Source of the DNA: an uncultured Planctomycetaceae bacterium
Lineage (GTDB): Bacteria > Planctomycetota > Planctomycetia > Isosphaerales > Isosphaeraceae
NCBI GenBank assembly: GCA_963833985.1
Contig: CAWIAD010000001.1
Location: 576,001-640,000 of the forward strand
Length of the DNA: 64,000 bases
Reading direction: 5' to 3'
This document shows, one piece after another, positions 11,552 through 27,785 of the stretch; position 1 is the first letter of the stretch; every line of letters starts with the position of its first letter. The position numbers were made by a program, and so were the translations under genes. Under the pieces are notes generated by a model that was given only the letters and a program-made list of their open reading frames with translations, was not told the origin of the DNA and did no database searches.

Positions 11552-12941
11552 TCAGGGCATGGGAACATCCGAGAACGAGAACGGTACGTCGATCGTGGTC
11601 TCGGTGAGCCGGTAGTAGCGGAGTTCCTTCGGCTCGGCGCCGGGGGCGGCAACCAGCGTCAGCGTCATCCGCGACGATTCCATGTCGGTGCGGGTCTGGA
11701 ACCAGGTGACAAGGTGACCGCGCGAGTCCAGGATCTCGATGTTCTGCTGGTGCGCTTCGGACCGGGAACTCAGCTCGGTGAGGGAATCGGGATCGGCGTT
11801 GGGGAGGCCGCCGGTCCGGCCCTCGCGGACTGCCAGCTCCAGTTGCCACTGGTGCGTGTTGGGATCGCCGCGAACCTCGTTGATCAGCAGATGAATGTCG
11901 CCGCTGGAGAACGACTTGCCCGCCGCGGTCGCCAGCGGGACGACAAGCGGGTCGGGATGTCTGGCGACGACCCTGAGAGGCACCGTACCGCGCAGGACCT
12001 TGATGGTCCGGCCAGGGGCTTCCGGCCGATTCAGCGGAGCACGGATGTGCACAACCGAGCTGCATGTCGCGCCCAGGACGTCCGTCGCCTGGCCCATCAT
12101 GGGCATTTCGGGAAGCGCCATCCGCAAGGAGTTGCCGAGGTCGTCGCGAGCCTCCAGGAGCTGGAGCGGTCCGGCCTGGCTGAGCGCCAGGCGGGGCTCG
12201 GCGGTCACCTGGAGCTGAACCGAGCAGCGCACGCTGGCGATGGGCCGGGGCAGTTGCGGCACCGCGTCGAGCCGCTGTGCGGGACGCGCCGGCTGGCGGA
12301 TTGCCGTGCATCCGCGGCAAGGCCGGGGCGAAACCGACATGGCGCTGGAATTCCAGGTCCACCAGGTGGACGCGGAACGGGCCGTGATCCGAGACCGGAT
12401 GAACCGGTATGGGGGTCCTGTCCGAGAGCGCGAGCGTCGGCTGGCTGCGCGCGGCGATGCCCCGGTACTCCAGATCGCTCTGGAGCCCGGCCGCGGTGCA
12501 GAGGCGGTCGATCGCTTTCCAGAACGGCAGCGGAGCGGAATCGTGCAGGCTGATCCGCTCACGCTTCCACCGGGGCATGAGCTCGGGCACCAGCGTGATC
12601 CTCATGCCCGACTGCTGCCCCAGAGCCGCCACCACCTCGGCCAGCGTCGCGTTCTCGAAGTTCAGCCGGACCATCGTCGGACTGGTGAGCAAGACGCCTT
12701 CAATCCTTTGCAGGAGCGCCCCGGCGCGGGTGCGAACTTCCATGTCACGCGAGGTCTCGGCCGCCTGGAGGGCTGGAATGGCCCGGCGCTGGAGCCCGAG
12801 AAGGGCGCGCGTTGCGGCTTCGCGGTCGGCGTAGCGGGGTGCGCCAAGCTGCTCGACCAGAGACTGTGGATCCGCCGGCGAGGCAGGGGCCGGGGCTTGA
12901 GCCGCGAGTTGCAACGCCAGCAGTAGACTCACACCAAGCAT
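11552..12941 (-). CDS. Secreted hypothetical protein with N-terminal HEAT-like repeat (frameshift near 12300)
   Basis: Signal peptide MLGVSLLLALQLAAQA, LVEQLGAPRYADREAA; continues into ORF 11552..12562 ending VPFSFSDVPMP. Confidence 0.65.
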
Positions 12942-13323
12942 TTCGAACCTCGCTTGCTCTGGCTCGCCGGAGACGATGCACGTGCCCGCGCTTTCGAACT
13001 CAAAGTTCGTCCAGCAGAAGAAGTAATCCATCATAGCCGATCGCGCCCATCTGTCCACCGGCCTCAGCTCGTTCGGGCCGGAAAAGACCGTGGCCCCGCT
13101 CCGGTCCGCGCACGATTCAGCGCGTTGCCGGAACGGCCGTTCGCGCGCGATCGGTGATCGTGCCGCAACAACCCGATCGATCGCCAGTGCGCCGTTCCAG
13201 AATTGCCGTGGACTGTTGATCTTGCCCCGTGACGCCGGTCGATCTTTCTGGTATGATGATCTGGGCGGGGAGAAACCGGGTTCAGGCAGCGCCGTCTCGG
13301 CCGGCTCGAGGCCAGGGAGAGCA

Positions 13324-14220
13324 ATGATGGTTCGATCCGGGACCTCGACATCCTGGTTGCGGAAGGCATGGGCACCGGCCATGGTGATGGTGCCTGTTCT
13401 TCTGACCTTGCCGGCGACAACGACTTTCGGCCAGGGGTTCGGCTACAGTGCGGATCCCTACCAGCCCTACAATTTTCAGTACGCTCCGTTCATCACGCCG
13501 CTCGCCCCGGGCCCCTTCGACGCTGGCTTCAACAACGGAATGGCCAGGGGAATCCGCGGCGCCAACCAGTTCGAGGAGTACCTCAACTCGTTGCAGACGA
13601 GCGTGTCCGGTGCGCGTGCCGGCGGCGCGGGGGTGGGCGTCCGGCACGACCAGCCCAACCGGGCCTACGACCGGGAATTCGGCCGCATCTACCAGCCCAA
13701 TCGGCTGGCCGACCAGCAATTCGATGCCGGCCAGACGAGCTTGAACCAGCTTTATTTTGAGTACCTCCGCGAGAAGGACCCGAGGAAGCGGGCCGAGCTG
13801 TTCCGGAACTATTCCCGGGCCCGCAGCCGGGTCGATCGGGCACTCTCCGCTCCGCGCGGAGCTACCGGCGCACGGGCAGGCACCAGGCCGGCACGGGGAA
13901 CCGCGGCCGGCGGCACCGCGGCCGGCAGGGCTTCTGAAGCCGCCGACCGCGACATGCTGGCGACTCCGCCACCGGTCACCCCGGACACGTCCCGCGCGCG
14001 GTCCCGCTCCGGCCGCACTTCCGGCGCACCGTCGCTCGGGCCGGCTCCGCCCATCAGCGGTGGGCGCGGGCTGAACTCCCCGGGAGATCTGACGCCTTCG
14101 CAGGTGCTCGATCGGGCGGCGCGCTCGGAGCGGTCCAGGCTTGCTCCCCGTCCGCGTGGGCCCGGTACAAATTCCGGATCCGGAAGAAATTCGACGAGCC
14201 CGCCGCCACCCTCCCCGTGA
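13324..14220 (+). CDS. Hypothetical exported, largely disordered Pro/Gly/Arg-rich protein
   Basis: GGAG RBS, signal-like N-terminus, coherent high-GC3 ORF. Confidence 0.6.
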   Translation: MMVRSGTSTSWLRKAWAPAMVMVPVLLTLPATTTFGQGFGYSADPYQPYNFQYAPFITPLAPGPFDAGFNNGMARGIRGANQFEEYLNSLQTSVSGARAGGAGVGVRHDQPNRAYDREFGRIYQPNRLADQQFDAGQTSLNQLYFEYLREKDPRKRAELFRNYSRARSRVDRALSAPRGATGARAGTRPARGTAAGGTAAGRASEAADRDMLATPPPVTPDTSRARSRSGRTSGAPSLGPAPPISGGRGLNSPGDLTPSQVLDRAARSERSRLAPRPRGPGTNSGSGRNSTSPPPPSP

Positions 14221-14449: not shown

Positions 14450-14467
14450 TTGTGAAAGCCTTCACAA
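14450..14467. promoter_or_regulatory. Rex operator (NADH/NAD+-sensing repressor site)
   Basis: TTGTGAA-AGCC-TTCACAA is an exact match to the Rex consensus TTGTGAA-N4-TTCACAA, 37 bp upstream of nuoA. Confidence 0.75.
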
Positions 14468-17588: not shown

Positions 17589-18118
17589 ATGCCAGCCGAC
17601 GTCACTACCGTTTCCAGGTTACGCATGCCGATCTTGAGCGAGTCGCTCAGGGAGCGGATCCGCGCCCTCTTTCCGCGCTATCCCAGCAAGCGCGCGGTGA
17701 CGCTGCCGGCCCTGCACATCGTTCAGGAGCACCTGCGGTGCGTGCCCTACCAGGCCATGGCCGAGATCGCCGAGCTGCTGGAGATCACGCCGGCCGAAGT
17801 GCACGACACCATGAGCTTCTACGGCTTCTTCTCGCAGGCGCCCTGGGGGAGGTCCGGGTCTGGATCTGCCGCTCGATCTCGTGCATGCTGCGCGGGGGCG
17901 ATGAGCTGCTGGAACACGCCTGCAAGCGGCTCCATGTGGAGCCGGGGGAAACATCCTCCGACGGCAAGCTGACGCTCGAGTACGCCGAGTGCCTGGGCAT
18001 CTGCGACCATGCCCCGGCCGCCCTGGCTGACGACGGCCGGGTCTTCGGCCCGCTCGACGAGGCCGGGGTGGACGCCATGCTCGAGGAAGTTCGAGGCATG
18101 TCCTCGAGCCAAAAGTAG
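17589..18118 (+). CDS. nuoE: NADH-quinone oxidoreductase subunit E (frameshift near 17843)
   Basis: RYPSKRAVTLPALHIVQ...SFYGFF, then CRSISCMLRG...ECLGICD (2Fe-2S ligands) in the next frame. Confidence 0.92.
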
Positions 18119-18128
18119 ACATTACCAT

Positions 18129-18144
18129 AATTTCATATGAAATT
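18129..18144. promoter_or_regulatory. Perfect 16-bp palindrome, candidate operator of the inserted cassette
   Basis: AATTTCATATGAAATT; a degenerate second copy lies at about 18269-18287. Confidence 0.4.
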
Positions 18145-18169
18145 TGCAGAGACTTAGAGTTAGCAAGTC

Positions 18170-18283
18170 ATGGCGTGGTCTAACCCCAATACCCTTGAAA
18201 TAGCGTTAACGAAAAGGGGCAAGCGGCTTGCGACAAACTTGTTCCCCGCTCTGCGTGGGAACGAGGGAAATTTCATTATATGA
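18170..18283 (+). pseudogene. 37-aa stub carrying the same 5' end (MAWSNP) as the DUF3990 gene
   Basis: GAGACTTAGAGT...ATGGCGTGGTCTAA is repeated at about 18149-18183 and 18394-18428; the stub translates as MAWSNPNTLEIALTKRGKRLATNLFPALRGNEGNFII*. Confidence 0.5.
18241..18262. repeat. REP-like palindrome
   Basis: GTTCCC-CGC-TCT-GCG-TGGGAAC hairpin. Confidence 0.55.
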
Positions 18284-18289
18284 ACTTTC

Positions 18290-18393
18290 TAAATAGCTCC
18301 CCGTAAGAGGGAAAGTGTGGAACGGCCGCCCTCGGCCGTCCTGAGCCAGCCGAGGGCGGCTGGCCCACATTCCAAGAGGCGAGGATCTATTTA
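18290..18393. mobile_element. ~100-bp palindromic MITE/REP-like element, copy 2, with TA target duplication
   Basis: TA-AATAGCTCCCCG...CGAGGATCTATT-TA (10/12 terminal inverted repeat). Removing it restores a sequence colinear with the uninterrupted leader at about 18129-18183. Confidence 0.82.
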
Positions 18394-18414
18394 GAGACTT
18401 AGAGTCGGCAATTA

Positions 18415-18921
18415 ATGGCGTGGTCTAATCCGGACATACGACTTTATCATGGCACTGTGGAAGATCATGTTCCGTCGATCCTCGCAGCGGTAGATCTTGA
18501 TTATCGACTGGTCCGTGGTGGGAGTGATTTCGGGCGGGGCTTCTACACGACCACCTCGGAACACCAGGCGCGCAAATGGGGAGAAACGCTCTCGTTGCAG
18601 AATCGCTATTACGGAACATCATCCGCCGTTGTTTGGTTTCAGATAACACGTGATGCCATCTCGGAACTGGACACCTTGTGGTTCGTCCGGGGAGATTCAG
18701 GCAATGACGACTACTGGCAGCTCGTTCAGCATTTTCGGTCTGTTCCCCGAGGCGTGGATCATTGCCGACCGGGTGGCTCCCCCTGGTATGATGTCGCCGT
18801 TGGGCCGCTGTCAAGGTTCTGGAAGAGGCGCGAGATCATCAGCGAGTCGGACCAGGTCAGTTTCCACACGGATCGGGCCATCGGATTGTTGAATTCGGCG
18901 ACGAAGGGCCGCTTATCATGA
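18415..18921 (+). CDS. DUF3990-like protein (predicted ADP-ribosyltransferase fold), putative toxin
   Basis: LYHGT...DFGRGFYTT...QA..W...YDVAVGP...DQVSFHT..A..LL pattern; visibly lower GC than the nuo genes. Confidence 0.8.
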   Translation: MAWSNPDIRLYHGTVEDHVPSILAAVDLDYRLVRGGSDFGRGFYTTTSEHQARKWGETLSLQNRYYGTSSAVVWFQITRDAISELDTLWFVRGDSGNDDYWQLVQHFRSVPRGVDHCRPGGSPWYDVAVGPLSRFWKRREIISESDQVSFHTDRAIGLLNSATKGRLS

Positions 18922-19196
18922 TGACCCAAAAAGAAAAAGACAATTACTGGCTAATCGTAAGGGAATGCGTGGTTGCTTTTCACGGACAGAAACGTGTCGA
19001 CGCGAATCGGATTGTGAGTTCTTACCGCGCTCGCATCGATTCTGCGTTACCGCAGATTGCATCGGATGTCTTCTATCACAACGAGCCATTTGATATCGCA
19101 TGCGACATCGCCGAAAGAGAGATCCCCTTGACCGAAGAGATCTTCTCCAAGTACGAGCGGATTCTGGAGGGGAAGCCGATTGATTCAACCGCGTGA
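18918..19196 (+). CDS. Small helical hypothetical protein, putative antitoxin/partner
   Basis: ATGA overlap with the upstream gene; 92 aa with YW and FYHNEPF motifs; low GC. Confidence 0.7.
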   Translation: MMTQKEKDNYWLIVRECVVAFHGQKRVDANRIVSSYRARIDSALPQIASDVFYHNEPFDIACDIAEREIPLTEEIFSKYERILEGKPIDSTA

Positions 19197-19240
19197 GCAG
19201 ACATGCGACGGCTATTCAAGTACCGAGCGAGAGATAAAAC

Positions 19241-20653
19241 GTGCCCACTTTTGAACCTGTCCTGAGCCGCAACTGGAACGTCGCCGACAGCCACACGCTG
19301 AAGGTGTATGAATCGCGCGGGGGGTACCAGGCGGCGCGCAAGGCCCTCACCACCATGGCCCCCGACGCCGTGGTGAACCAGGTGAAGGATTCGGAGCTCC
19401 GGGGCCGTGGCGGCGCGGGGTTCCCCTGCGGGCTGAAGTGGACGTTCCTGCCCAAGGATCGCAAAGAGACGCTCATGTGCGTGAACGCCGACGAGAGCGA
19501 GCCGGCGACGTTCAACAACCGCTACCTGATGGAGAAGGACCCCCAGCAGCTGCTCGAGGGCATCCTCATCTCGTGCTTCGCAACCCGGGCGCGCACGGCC
19601 TACATCTACCTGCGATTCGAGTACATCCGCGCGTACCGCATCCTCGAGGCGGCCATCGCCGAGGCGCGCGCCGCCGGGCACCTGGGCAAGGACATCTACG
19701 GATCGGGCTTCGACCTGGATATCTGGGTGCACCGCGGGGCGGGCGCCTACATCTGCGGCGAGGAAACCGGCCTCATCGAGAGCCTGGAAGGCAAGCGCGG
19801 CTGGCCGCGGATCAAGCCGCCCTTCCCGGCCATCGAGGGGGCGTTCCGCAAGCCCACGGTGGTGAACAACGTGGAAACGCTCTGCTGCGTGCCGCACATC
19901 ATGGAGCGGGGCGGTGCCTGGTTCAAGTCGATCGGCACGCCCAAGAGCTATGGACCGAAGCTGTACACGATCTCCGGCCACGTGAACCGGCAGGTCTGCG
20001 TCGAGCTGCCGCTGGGCATCACCTGCCGGGCCCTCATCGAGGAGCACGGCGGCGGAGTCTGGAAGGGGCGCAAGGCGAAGGCGGCTGTGCCCGGGGGCAT
20101 CAGCATGGGGCTGCTCTCCGCCGACGAGCTGGACACGCCGCTCGACTTCGAGAGCCTGCGCAAGCCCGGCTGCCTGGGCCTGGGAACCGCGGCCGTCACC
20201 GTGCTCGACGACCAGACGAGGATCATCGACTACCTGCACAACACCTGCCGGTTCTTCGCCCACGAGAGCTGCGGTCAGTGCACCCCCTGCCGCGAAGGGA
20301 CCGGCTGGCTGAACAAGATGGTCCAGCGCATTCGTGCCGGCGGCGGGCGGATCGAGGACCTCGATCTGATGCTCAGCATGGCCAATAACATGGGGATCAT
20401 GCCGGGCACCACGATCTGCGGCCTGGCCGACGGTGCGGCCTGGCCCATCAAGAACGCGATCGCGAAGTTCCGCGGCGAGCTCGAAGACTTCATCCGCACG
20501 CACCGCTCACCGGCCCACGAGGTCACCGTCTTGCAGGAGAGCATCGCCCACGGCAGACCGGCGAGCGACGGCTTCGTGGGCCTGCCCGTCCTGAACGCCC
20601 CGCCGCTGGCGCCGGCCGGCGCGGAACCTCCGGTCAGCCGCATTCCGAACTGA
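19241..20653 (+). CDS. nuoF: NADH-quinone oxidoreductase subunit F
   Basis: LRGRGGAGFP, NADESEP, GAGAYICGEET, ESCGQCTPCREG, TICGL. Confidence 0.97.
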   Translation: MPTFEPVLSRNWNVADSHTLKVYESRGGYQAARKALTTMAPDAVVNQVKDSELRGRGGAGFPCGLKWTFLPKDRKETLMCVNADESEPATFNNRYLMEKDPQQLLEGILISCFATRARTAYIYLRFEYIRAYRILEAAIAEARAAGHLGKDIYGSGFDLDIWVHRGAGAYICGEETGLIESLEGKRGWPRIKPPFPAIEGAFRKPTVVNNVETLCCVPHIMERGGAWFKSIGTPKSYGPKLYTISGHVNRQVCVELPLGITCRALIEEHGGGVWKGRKAKAAVPGGISMGLLSADELDTPLDFESLRKPGCLGLGTAAVTVLDDQTRIIDYLHNTCRFFAHESCGQCTPCREGTGWLNKMVQRIRAGGGRIEDLDLMLSMANNMGIMPGTTICGLADGAAWPIKNAIAKFRGELEDFIRTHRSPAHEVTVLQESIAHGRPASDGFVGLPVLNAPPLAPAGAEPPVSRIPN

Positions 20654-22527: not shown

Positions 22528-23581
22528 GTGAAGCGGATGATCTGGGTGGCGTTGGGCATCTTGCTGAAGATCCTGGTGGTGGTGAACATCGCCATGGGTA
22601 CAGTGGCCTACCTGATTTACGTGGAACGCAAGGTCGCCGCGTACGCCCAGGATCGCCTGGGACCGAATCGGGCGGGCAAGGAATTCGGCGTCCCGTTTGG
22701 ACTGCTCCAGCCCCTGGCCGACGGGGCGAAGATGCTGCTCAAGGAAGACGTGATCCCCGGCTACGTGTCGCGGCCGCTGTACCTGATGGCTCCGGTGATT
22801 GCGATCGTCGCGGCCATGATCGGGTTCGCCGTTGTCCCGTTCGGTCCGGTCGGCCCGAACCAGATCATGAATTTCCAGATCGCCCCGAACATCAACATCG
22901 GCATCCTCTATGTCTTCGCCATCGGCAGCCTGGCGGTCTACGGCATTATCCTGGCCGGCTGGTCGTCCAACAACAAGTACGCCTTCCTGGTGCGCGCTGC
23001 GCTCCAGTGCCCAGCTCATCAGCTACGAGATCCCGCTGGGGATGTCCATTCTGGGCATGGTGCTGATCGCCGGCTCGCTCGACCTGAACCAGATCATCGG
23101 CTGGCAGGACCGGCACGTCTGGGGCGTCTTCGTGCAGCCCATCGGCTTCCTGCTGTTCCTCGTGAGTGCGTTCGCGGAGACCAACCGGCTTCCCTTCGAC
23201 CTGCCCGAATCGGAACAGGAGCTTGTCGGCGGCTTCCACACCGAATACTCGGCCATGAAGTTTGGAATGTTCTTTCTTGGTGAATATCTGCATGTGATCA
23301 CGGTCAGTTACCTGACGGTCATCCTGTTCTGGGGAGGCTGGGACCTGCCCTTCGTGCTCGACGCGGGGCAGACGGGTTTTCTGAGCGTGGTGCTCAAGGT
23401 GCTGGTCTTGCTGGTCAAGGTGGCGATCATGATCCTGGTCATCATGTGGGTGCGCTGGACGTTGCCCCGGTTCCGCTACGATCAGCTCATGGACCTGGCC
23501 TGGAAGTCGATGATTCCACTGTCGCTGGTGAACCTGGTGGCCACCGGGGCGATCGTGCAGCTGTTGTATTCCTCGAGATAG
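22528..23581 (+). CDS. nuoH: NADH-quinone oxidoreductase subunit H (frameshift near 22990)
   Basis: ERKV...QDRLGPN, GLLQPLAD, WSSNNKY / QLISYE, AETNRLPFDLPE, PRFRYDQLM. Confidence 0.93.
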
Positions 23582-25718: not shown

Positions 25719-25731
25719 TAAGGAGCGAGGC

Positions 25732-27785
25732 GTGTCTGGTTTCTTCGTGCACAATGTCTGGATGATTCCGTGCCTGCCTCTGCTGGGCGCCGCCGTGGCG
25801 GCCCTGGGCGCCCGCCGGCTGCGCGCAGCGCCCACCTGCCGGTGGTGGCGGGCATCGCCCTGGCCTTTCTCATGTCCTGCGGCGCCCTGTACTCGGCGGG
25901 GCCCGAGACGACCACGGTGGCCGCGCGCTGGCTGGCGATCAGCAACCTGGAAATCCCCCTGGAGTTCCGGGTCGACGGGCTGACCACGATGATGCTGGCC
26001 ATGGTCACCTTCGTGTCGACGCTGGTGGCCGTCTTCGCCGCCGGCTACATGGCCGGAGATCCCGGCTACCCCCGTTTCTTCGCGCTCATCGGGCTCTTCG
26101 TCTTCTCGATGACGGGGCTCGTGCTCTCGAACAACTACCTGCTCACCTACGGCTTCTGGGAGGGCGTGGGCGTTTGCAGCTATCTGCTCATCGGCTTCTG
26201 GCATACCCGGCCGGCGGCCGCGACGGCGGCGATGAAGGCTTTCCTGGTGAACCGGATCGGTGACTTCGGCTTCGCGATCGCCATCTTCTGGCTCTGGGAC
26301 TTGGTGCCGGGCCACGACCTGAGCTACGGCAATGTGCTCGCCGGTGAGACCCTGGCGGGGCTGCCCGCGTCTGCCAGGGTCGGCATCCCGCTGCTGCTCT
26401 TCTGGGCCGCCACCGCCAAGAGCGCGCAGATCCCGCTTTACGTCTGGCTGCCCGACGCGATGGAGGGCCCCACGCCGGTCTCGGCCCTGATCCACGCCGC
26501 CACCATGGTCACCGCGGGGGTGTATCTGATCGCCCGGTCCGCTCCGCTGGTGGCCCTGGCCCCGGGTGTGCAGGTGCTGATCGCCGTCACCGGCTGTGCC
26601 ACGGCCCTGCTCTCGGCGTCGATCGCCCTGACGCAGAACGACCTCAAGCGGGTGATGGCCTACTCGACGGTCAGCCAGCTTGGCTACATGTTCATGGCGC
26701 TCGGTGCCGGCGTGGGGAACGTGGCCCAACTCGCGGTCACGGCGGCGATGTTCCACCTGTTCACCCACGCGTTCTTCAAGGCGCTACTCTTCCTGGCGTC
26801 CGGCAGCGTTATGCACGCGATGGGCGACGTGATCGACATGCGGCGCTTCGGCGGCCTGCGGCACCGGCTGCCCTACACGCACCTGACGTTCGCCGTCGGC
26901 GGCCTGGCGCTGGCCGGCATCTTCCCCTTCGCCGGTTTCTTCAGCAAGGACGAGATCCTGATGGCGCTCAGGTCCGCCGCGCACGACCCGGCCGGCCAGC
27001 CGTGGGGCGGGGTCTACCTGGCGGTCTACTGGGTGGCGATCATCACGGTACTGATGACGGCCTTCTACACGGCCCGCGCCTACTTCATGACCTTCTGGGG
27101 CCCGGACAAGCTGCCCAGCCCGAACGACCCCGAGGCGCCTGCGGCGGAGCCCGGTTCGGGTCACGGCGATCAGGAGGCGCACGCTCCCCGGCAGGACGAG
27201 ACTCATGCCCATGGAGACTCGCACGGGCACGGCCACGGGCACGGCCACGTCGGAGAGGAATCGCCCCCCGTGATGACCTATCCGCTGCTGGTCCTGGCGG
27301 GCTGTGCCGTGCTGGCCGGACTGCTCTTCGGGCCGACCGGACTGTTCGAGCATCACCTTCGCGAGACGCTGGGATGGGACCTGTTGGGCGAGGCCGAGCA
27401 CGGCGCGGACCTGGCCACGGCGGTCATCAGCACGCTCGCGGCGCTCCTGGGCATTGGCGTGGCCTACCGGCTCTACGCCGCGCCCAGCCCCGTGCCGGGC
27501 CGCCTGGCGGATCGGTTCCGGCCGCTCTACCTGGCGTCGCTGCACAAGTTCTACGTGGACGAGGTTTACGATTGGGTTGTCGTCAAGAGCACCCGGGCGA
27601 TCGCCGTGGTCTGCGAGTTCCTGGATATCTACCTGGTTGACCAGCTTGTCGTGGGCATCGCCCGGCTTCCCCGCAAGCTGGGCAAGGATCTGCTGGCGGG
27701 TTACCAGAACGGCCTGATCCAGTTTTATGCGGCCGCCTCGGCGCTGGGCGTGGCCGTGCTCCTGTTGATCTTGTTGTTGTTTTGA
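25732..27785 (+). CDS. nuoL: NADH-quinone oxidoreductase subunit L (frameshift near 25828)
   Basis: WEGVGVCSYLLIGFW, AKSAQIPLYVWLPDAMEGPTPVSALIHAATMV, HAFFKALLFL. Confidence 0.95.

Follow-up and report, generated by a model that had tools for sequence, protein, structure and literature searches.

A putative ADP-ribosyltransferase toxin-antitoxin-like gene pair at a polymorphic site within the nuo operon of Planctomycetota

What are two small genes doing between nuoE and nuoF, inside the respiratory operon of an uncultured Planctomycetaceae bacterium? The window analysed here is a stretch of 64,000 nucleotides (assembly GCA_963833985.1, contig CAWIAD010000001.1, positions 576,001 to 640,000). 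A first-pass annotation of its sequence had proposed an undescribed toxin-antitoxin or anti-phage module, consisting of a DUF3990 protein with an ADP-ribosyltransferase (ART) fold (gene 1) and a small partner (gene 2). Its description of the pair proved accurate in coordinates, overlap and composition. The two genes are co-oriented and share an ATGA overlap, and their GC content and third-position GC content (0.56/0.62 for gene 1 and 0.49/0.60 for gene 2) are low next to the 0.64-0.68/0.89-0.92 of nuoD, nuoF and nuoG. Each is single-copy in the 10.2-Mb genome. We consider it likely that they form a two-gene, type II toxin-antitoxin (TA)-like module on a site that resembles a minimal mobile element. 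The toxin family has been predicted before. A search of the literature on DUF3990, PDC-M13/PDC-M10 and nuoE-nuoF insertion, which covered few subscription journals, turned up neither the partner family nor the pairing nor the exchange site.

An ART-fold protein coupled to a conserved partner

Gene 1 is a complete standalone gene of 168 aa with its own conserved start. It matched Pfam DUF3990 (PF13151) with 42.2 bits, against a gathering cut-off of 32.2, and the HGT, DFGRGFY and DQVSF motifs from which the family had been recognised are present. The expected fold was also found, as structural comparison of the predicted structure revealed an ART split beta-sheet. H12, in strand 1, and Y44, in the GFY motif, are invariant in 49 of 49 aligned relatives. 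Q147, which begins a strand next to D146 and is the putative third catalytic residue, is likewise invariant (77 of 78 in a second count). A gene-1 profile aligned YHGT and GFY with the diphtheria toxin catalytic domain (E 0.008). The putative triad H12-Y44-Q147 falls in the H-Y-[EDQ] class, recognised among ARTs in two papers (PMC9503650, PMC11618068). The glutamine had been singled out as a departure from H-Y-E; the residues are indeed conserved, but they are no anomaly, since this class accepts Q at the third position. Fold and residues suggest that gene 1 would be an NAD+-using ART of the diphtheria/PARP-like type. Judging from its nearest structural relatives, its substrate would most likely be RNA or a translation component, or NAD+ itself. 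For both genes alike, the ratio of nonsynonymous to synonymous substitutions (dN/dS) is well below 1, indicating purifying selection.

A scan of genomes yielded 403 confirmed relatives of gene 1. Our locus counts are based on the best 80 of these, which span Planctomycetota, Acidobacteriota, Gemmatimonadota, Chloroflexota, Armatimonadota, Pseudomonadota and others. At 67 of the 80 loci, a first partner profile places a partner-family gene immediately 3' of the ART gene, and a second-round profile built from the first-profile matches raises this to 76. Gene 2 is thus conserved beside DUF3990 homologs in many phyla, and two of the four loci left without a partner sit at contig ends. Elsewhere among 9,669 open reading frames (ORFs), the first profile matched in two places only, one being a second copy in tandem and the other an inverted copy close to an ART that lacks a partner. 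Wherever the ART frame is open at nuoE-nuoF (14 loci), the ATGA overlap is found. With three duplicates removed, 77 loci were classified by intactness: both genes are intact in 66, the ART is broken beside a partner in seven, the ART is intact with no adjacent partner in two, and the ART is broken with no partner in the remaining two. In phylum-wide genomes, the partner profile matched 2 of 401 including this one, at low sensitivity (12 candidates scored per genome). Carriage of the pair by phages was considered and rejected, as the six distant DUF3990 loci in viral contigs are all without the partner and no PHROG match was found.

The partner belongs to a helical family of 415 clusters with an invariant W11, a conserved YHxEPF motif and the family consensus FWxxVxxCL. 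The first-pass annotation had recognised no family for gene 2 and had read YW and FYHNEPF motifs in it. The motifs are there, and the family has no match in Pfam, NCBIfam, PHROG or PADLOC. Structure prediction of the ART-partner complex scored 0.83, compared with 0.00 for the best of three controls; of 157 solved complexes, 116 reach the mark used for such predictions, as do 2 of 215 mismatches. The runs agreed in at least 81% of contacts, and the predicted local distance difference test score of the partner was at least 84. In the predicted interface, partner residues 49-54 and 56, in the conserved motif, face ART residues 50-64, 132-137 and 142-145, next to Q147. The partner is thus predicted to bind the ART directly, and as a helical antitoxin it would do so beside the active-site cleft through YHxEPF.

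In fold, the partner weakly resembles mitochondrial LYR proteins, which is a lead only. The partner differs from these in its two extra helices, its invariant Trp and its lack of an LYR motif, and its predicted ligand is the ART. Pfam, PDB sequence profiles and ESM Atlas named clusters gave no support for LYR homology by sequence, no LYR family was among the Pfam matches listed (25 of 51 families), and a Foldseek search gave no match at E 0.001; we therefore set such homology aside. A paper on LYR-motif proteins reports none in prokaryotes (PMC11293456). It is highly improbable that the partner is a bacterial LYR relative whose residence in nuo and suf operons reflects a functional tie to complex I and Fe-S assembly, with LYR assembly factors descending from an ART antitoxin.

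The partner domain was also seen fused N-terminally to longer proteins (L049:940-3174, L086:2420-3088, L059:2418-3434, L064:5592-7112 and L069:5603-6952). These include a DEAD-like helicase (beside a T5orf172/MUG113 gene), a ROS/MucR regulator and unannotated proteins of 340-510 aa.

A polymorphic exchange site between nuoE and nuoF

Among 60 relatives searched, the partner matched in five (G001, G006, G007, G011 and G036), always directly before nuoF. The cassette occupies 5 of 13 readable same-genus junctions (window included), the other eight being empty, and 6 of 33 junctions in the family. None of the 12 class-level junctions read (from 16 matches) carries it. One record with the pair at nuoE-nuoF is labelled Isosphaeraceae. 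In metagenomes, the 16 loci whose partner shares 50% identity or more all border on nuoE and/or nuoF, and four more distant loci do not. The same junction is thus filled in some relatives and empty in others. Misassembly at the junctions, raised as a concern in the first-pass annotation, is ruled out by the independent assemblies of five relatives and 16 metagenomic contigs with the same site filled. One read run that we compared is neutral on the assembly, with 0.08 of words present and the cassette uncovered.

Carriers are scattered on the host trees, with at least six changes on the nuoF tree and at least five on the nuoD tree. Cassettes at nuoE-nuoF form three allele groups that do not track the host: where nuoE/nuoF are 97-99% identical between hosts, identity of the partner alleles drops to about 60-74%, or a host has no partner at all. 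For instance, G011 and L145 share 97% identity in nuoE, 99% in nuoF and 63% in the partner, and G006 and G011 share 97% in nuoF and 73% in the partner. G007 and G011 share 84% in nuoF and 91% in the partner, and G003 has an empty junction at 96-97% identity. The final nuoE codons go with the cassette allele, those of G011 being like those of G007. The nuoE-nuoF junction is therefore a polymorphic exchange site, where several divergent alleles and empty ones occur among near-identical hosts.

In relatives, the cassette begins 44-78 nt after nuoE and ends ~40-48 nt before nuoF. Since this leaves no room for a mobility gene, homologous recombination is the simplest cause, and strains would swap whole or empty alleles through the nuoE/nuoF flanks. 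The junction resembles a minimal mobile element in its variable content between conserved flanks among close relatives and in having no mobility gene. Such elements are described in Neisseria between separate genes (PMC3787668). The present site, in contrast, is inside a respiratory operon and holds alternative alleles of one toxin-partner family.

We assessed 20 nuoE-nuoF loci in which the ART region is covered (G036 and L155 were left out; L145 and L146 are identical in sequence). Of their ART genes, 12 are intact, two contain an in-frame insertion of 36 aa and six are broken or deleted. Departures in the partner are a break (G001, whose ART is also broken), an extension and a cut by a contig end, each seen at a single locus. 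This frequent ART decay, along with the other inserts and the repeats found at the same junction, would fit a selfish or near-neutral passenger, which persists as the junction tolerates inserts and recombination spreads the cassette. We judge this very unlikely, considering that dN/dS is well below 1 for both genes, that the catalytic positions are invariant and that deep allele divergence is kept among near-identical hosts.

Several observations on individual junctions are added here. The ART insertion in L019 and L156 is 108 nt long and adds 36 residues; a near-identical allele, L154, is without it. The ART of G036, which belongs to another genus and has a frameshift-ridden assembly, groups apart from the same-genus alleles. 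Independent arrival in G036 was discarded, as a single clade was not rejected (approximately unbiased test, p-AU 0.195). G018 has an unrelated two-gene insert between nuoE and nuoF (L119:2070-2631), encoding 77 aa and ~117-133 aa with no Pfam or NCBIfam match. By eye, its second protein resembles the N-terminal part of P0174, which carries the partner domain. In L133 (G052, a class-level relative), the nuoE-nuoF spacer is longer than usual, at ~350 nt, with an ATG-started stretch.

Toxin-antitoxin function and its alternatives

The short distances to nuoE and nuoF suggest that the cassette probably rides the host nuo transcript. No sigma-70-like promoter was found in 17900-19400, by a scan possibly unsuited to this phylum. 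No helix-turn-helix or ribbon-helix-helix Pfam match was found in 141 partner-family members, and the pair carries neither a mobility gene nor a detectable DNA-binding domain. If host transcription were lost, the antitoxin would be drained and the ART freed. Activation by phage shut-off of host transcription is known for other TA systems (PMC10511110), and is speculative here. Phage defence is the most likely benefit, held with somewhat less than even confidence overall; plain addiction or stress dormancy would account for the rest. More doubtful is a further idea, in which the module would detect phage-driven shut-off of transcription through the core-operon transcript, with its alleles being shuffled by way of the flanking genes.

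The pair resembles ART-fold type II TA modules (ParST, RES-Xre, MbcTA, NatRT, DarTG and CmdTAC) in being a two-gene operon of an ART/RES-fold toxin and a small partner with predicted binding. CmdT likewise has an HY-[E,D,Q] triad (PMC11618068). Gene 1 represents a different toxin family, however, with 7-18% structural identity among the best 12 rows. Here the toxin gene comes first, there is no third gene, and the partner has no Xre/HTH, macro, NADAR or chaperone match. Gene 1 also matches the PADLOC models PDC-M13A/B (E 4e-12 to 8e-7) and PDC-M10A (E 5e-7), candidates found embedded in defence systems according to a preprint (bioRxiv 10.1101/2024.01.29.577857). In this comparison, made through PADLOC models only, neither gene 2 nor any of the 141 partner-family members matched a PDC model.

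Several points weigh against a TA module with a defence role. Toxin-first order and the lack of an autoregulator are unusual for a classic type II pair, and ART activity may be reduced or altered by having Q where the catalytic E would be. H12, Y44 and Q147 are not in the listed interface, so the partner could bind without inhibiting. Breakage tends to affect the ART before the partner, which is suggestive and not firm: the binomial p is 0.16 if L031 is counted as partner loss and 0.047 if it is not counted. The metagenomic loci were found by the partner motif, which favours intact partners. Two partner-family genes (L163 and L172) have no ART in the flanks examined. Finally, of the neighbours scanned (68 upstream, 71 downstream), few are defence genes (McrBC at L027, SIR2 at L089, SEFIR at L072 and RES at L051), and most neighbours of the pair are housekeeping genes.

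Could gene 1 be the orphaned tip of a polymorphic toxin, left with its immunity gene? The complete Tox-ART-HYD2 signature is present in gene 1 (H12, D38, GFY42-44, W55 and R79, the last in 61 of 78), which suggests that HYD2 and DUF3990 are the same family. A small gene immediately downstream is a further likeness. Tox-ART-HYD2/DUF3990 ARTs serve as Rhs or secreted toxin domains (PMC3482391, PMC7955679 and PMC4524185). A pair derived from such a secreted toxin could be kept as the partner guards against the ART toxins of competitors; partner-only alleles do persist (G011, L153 and P0002), and several alleles co-circulate. Gene 1, however, is standalone, without a secretion or Rhs domain, has its own start and is under purifying selection, and no Rhs, VgrG or PAAR family was found among the scanned neighbours. 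The partner matches no Pfam immunity family, and the table in PMC3482391 gives none for HYD2. We regard this origin as decidedly unlikely.

The first-pass annotation had also speculated that a Rex-boxed transcript ties the cassette to redox state. The box is real: the palindrome upstream of nuoA has 0 mismatches to the Rex consensus, and the genome encodes a Rex-family DNA-binding domain. The same box lies ~3.6-4.3 kb upstream of nuoF in seven cassette-free same-genus genomes (G002, G004, G008, G009, G010, G012 and G013), so it is ancestral to the nuo operon and a cassette-specific Rex link is ruled out. The pair also occurs at suf, carboxylase, mdh-fumarase and many unrelated sites, and a redox link is therefore not specific. 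The cassette would follow nuo operon control if co-transcribed. It is unlikely that the ART is a non-lethal regulator modifying complex I, Fe-S assembly or another redox enzyme, with the partner as adaptor or chaperone and the nuo/suf location functional.

As a toxin-antitoxin-like module, the pair adds a widespread unannotated partner family to ART-type systems, and it is small and directly testable, with an unusual H-Y-Q site. It would also be a toxin module acting as an exchangeable multi-allelic slot within a core respiratory operon. Defence-discovery pipelines that depend on a defence-island setting and discard housekeeping operons, such as that of PMC13069673, would miss such modules, which makes nuoE-nuoF and sufB-sufC in Planctomycetota places to look for more.

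Other sites and the make-up of the window locus

A separate ART clade includes five loci between sufB and sufC and a sixth before sufC, on a contig starting just upstream. The pair at the sufB-sufC junction often comes with extra small genes of 73-107 aa (one DUF5076), which suggests another insertion hotspot. In the window's own genome, sufC-sufB is without a comparable gap. In Gemmatimonadota (L033, L038, L042, L056 and L058), the pair lies near carboxyltransferase/biotin carboxylase genes, with two tandem partner genes in L056. One genome has the pair in triplicate, each time at an unrelated site (L028, L029 and L030). The copies form one clade, which suggests within-genome spread by a route other than flank recombination.

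Coordinates are collected in Table 1. The insertion reported at 18415-19196 is real, but it extends over ~1.1 kb rather than 0.78 kb. Its first 296 nt (18119-18414) contain a relic gene-1 start and two dispersed genomic repeats. The relic and the working gene-1 start form a 39-nt direct repeat with 87% identity (18148-18186 and 18393-18431). Because the relic ATG lies 51 nt past the nuoE stop, which fits the spacing in relatives, the working gene 1 appears to have been displaced downstream by a duplication and two insertions.

Table 1. Features of the cassette locus in the window, with loci at a second junction in other genomes
Feature	Position or loci	Strand	Description
Gene 1	18415..18921	+	168 aa, DUF3990 ART-fold protein, putative toxin
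Gene 2 (partner)	18918..19196	+	92 aa, all-helical, unannotated family, putative antitoxin
nuoE, left flank	17589..18118	+	stop ends 18118; apparent one-base frameshift near 17841-17849
nuoF, right flank	19241..20653	+	begins 44 nt past partner stop
Relic first copy	18129..18187	+	cassette leader and gene-1 start; ATG at 18170
R1	18185..18266	.	dispersed repetitive extragenic palindromic (REP)-like repeat; truncates relic gene-1 start
R2	18289..18394	.	106-nt miniature inverted-repeat transposable element (MITE)-like repeat with terminal inverted repeats; inside second leader copy
Rex-type operator	14450..14467	.	upstream of nuoA; belongs to host operon, not cassette
sufB-sufC junction loci	L057, L073, L075, L078, L097, L102		Planctomycetota, second resident site

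The nuoA-N operon had been called otherwise intact, which holds roughly, except that the frameshift of nuoE falls within a C/G run and that an apparent frameshift divides nuoH (22528-23581) between two ORFs. Further apparent frameshifts were seen at the nuoL start (~25730-25780) and in an upstream gene (11552-13382). All of these are probably long-read indel errors. Rfam gave no match of note.

R1 has 42 matches in the genome, 32 of them near full length. For R2 there are 57, of which 41 are near full length and 11 are at 100% identity, and a crude script found no autonomous element with R2 ends. The terminal repeats of R2 are CTAAATAG, and the element was apparently recently active.
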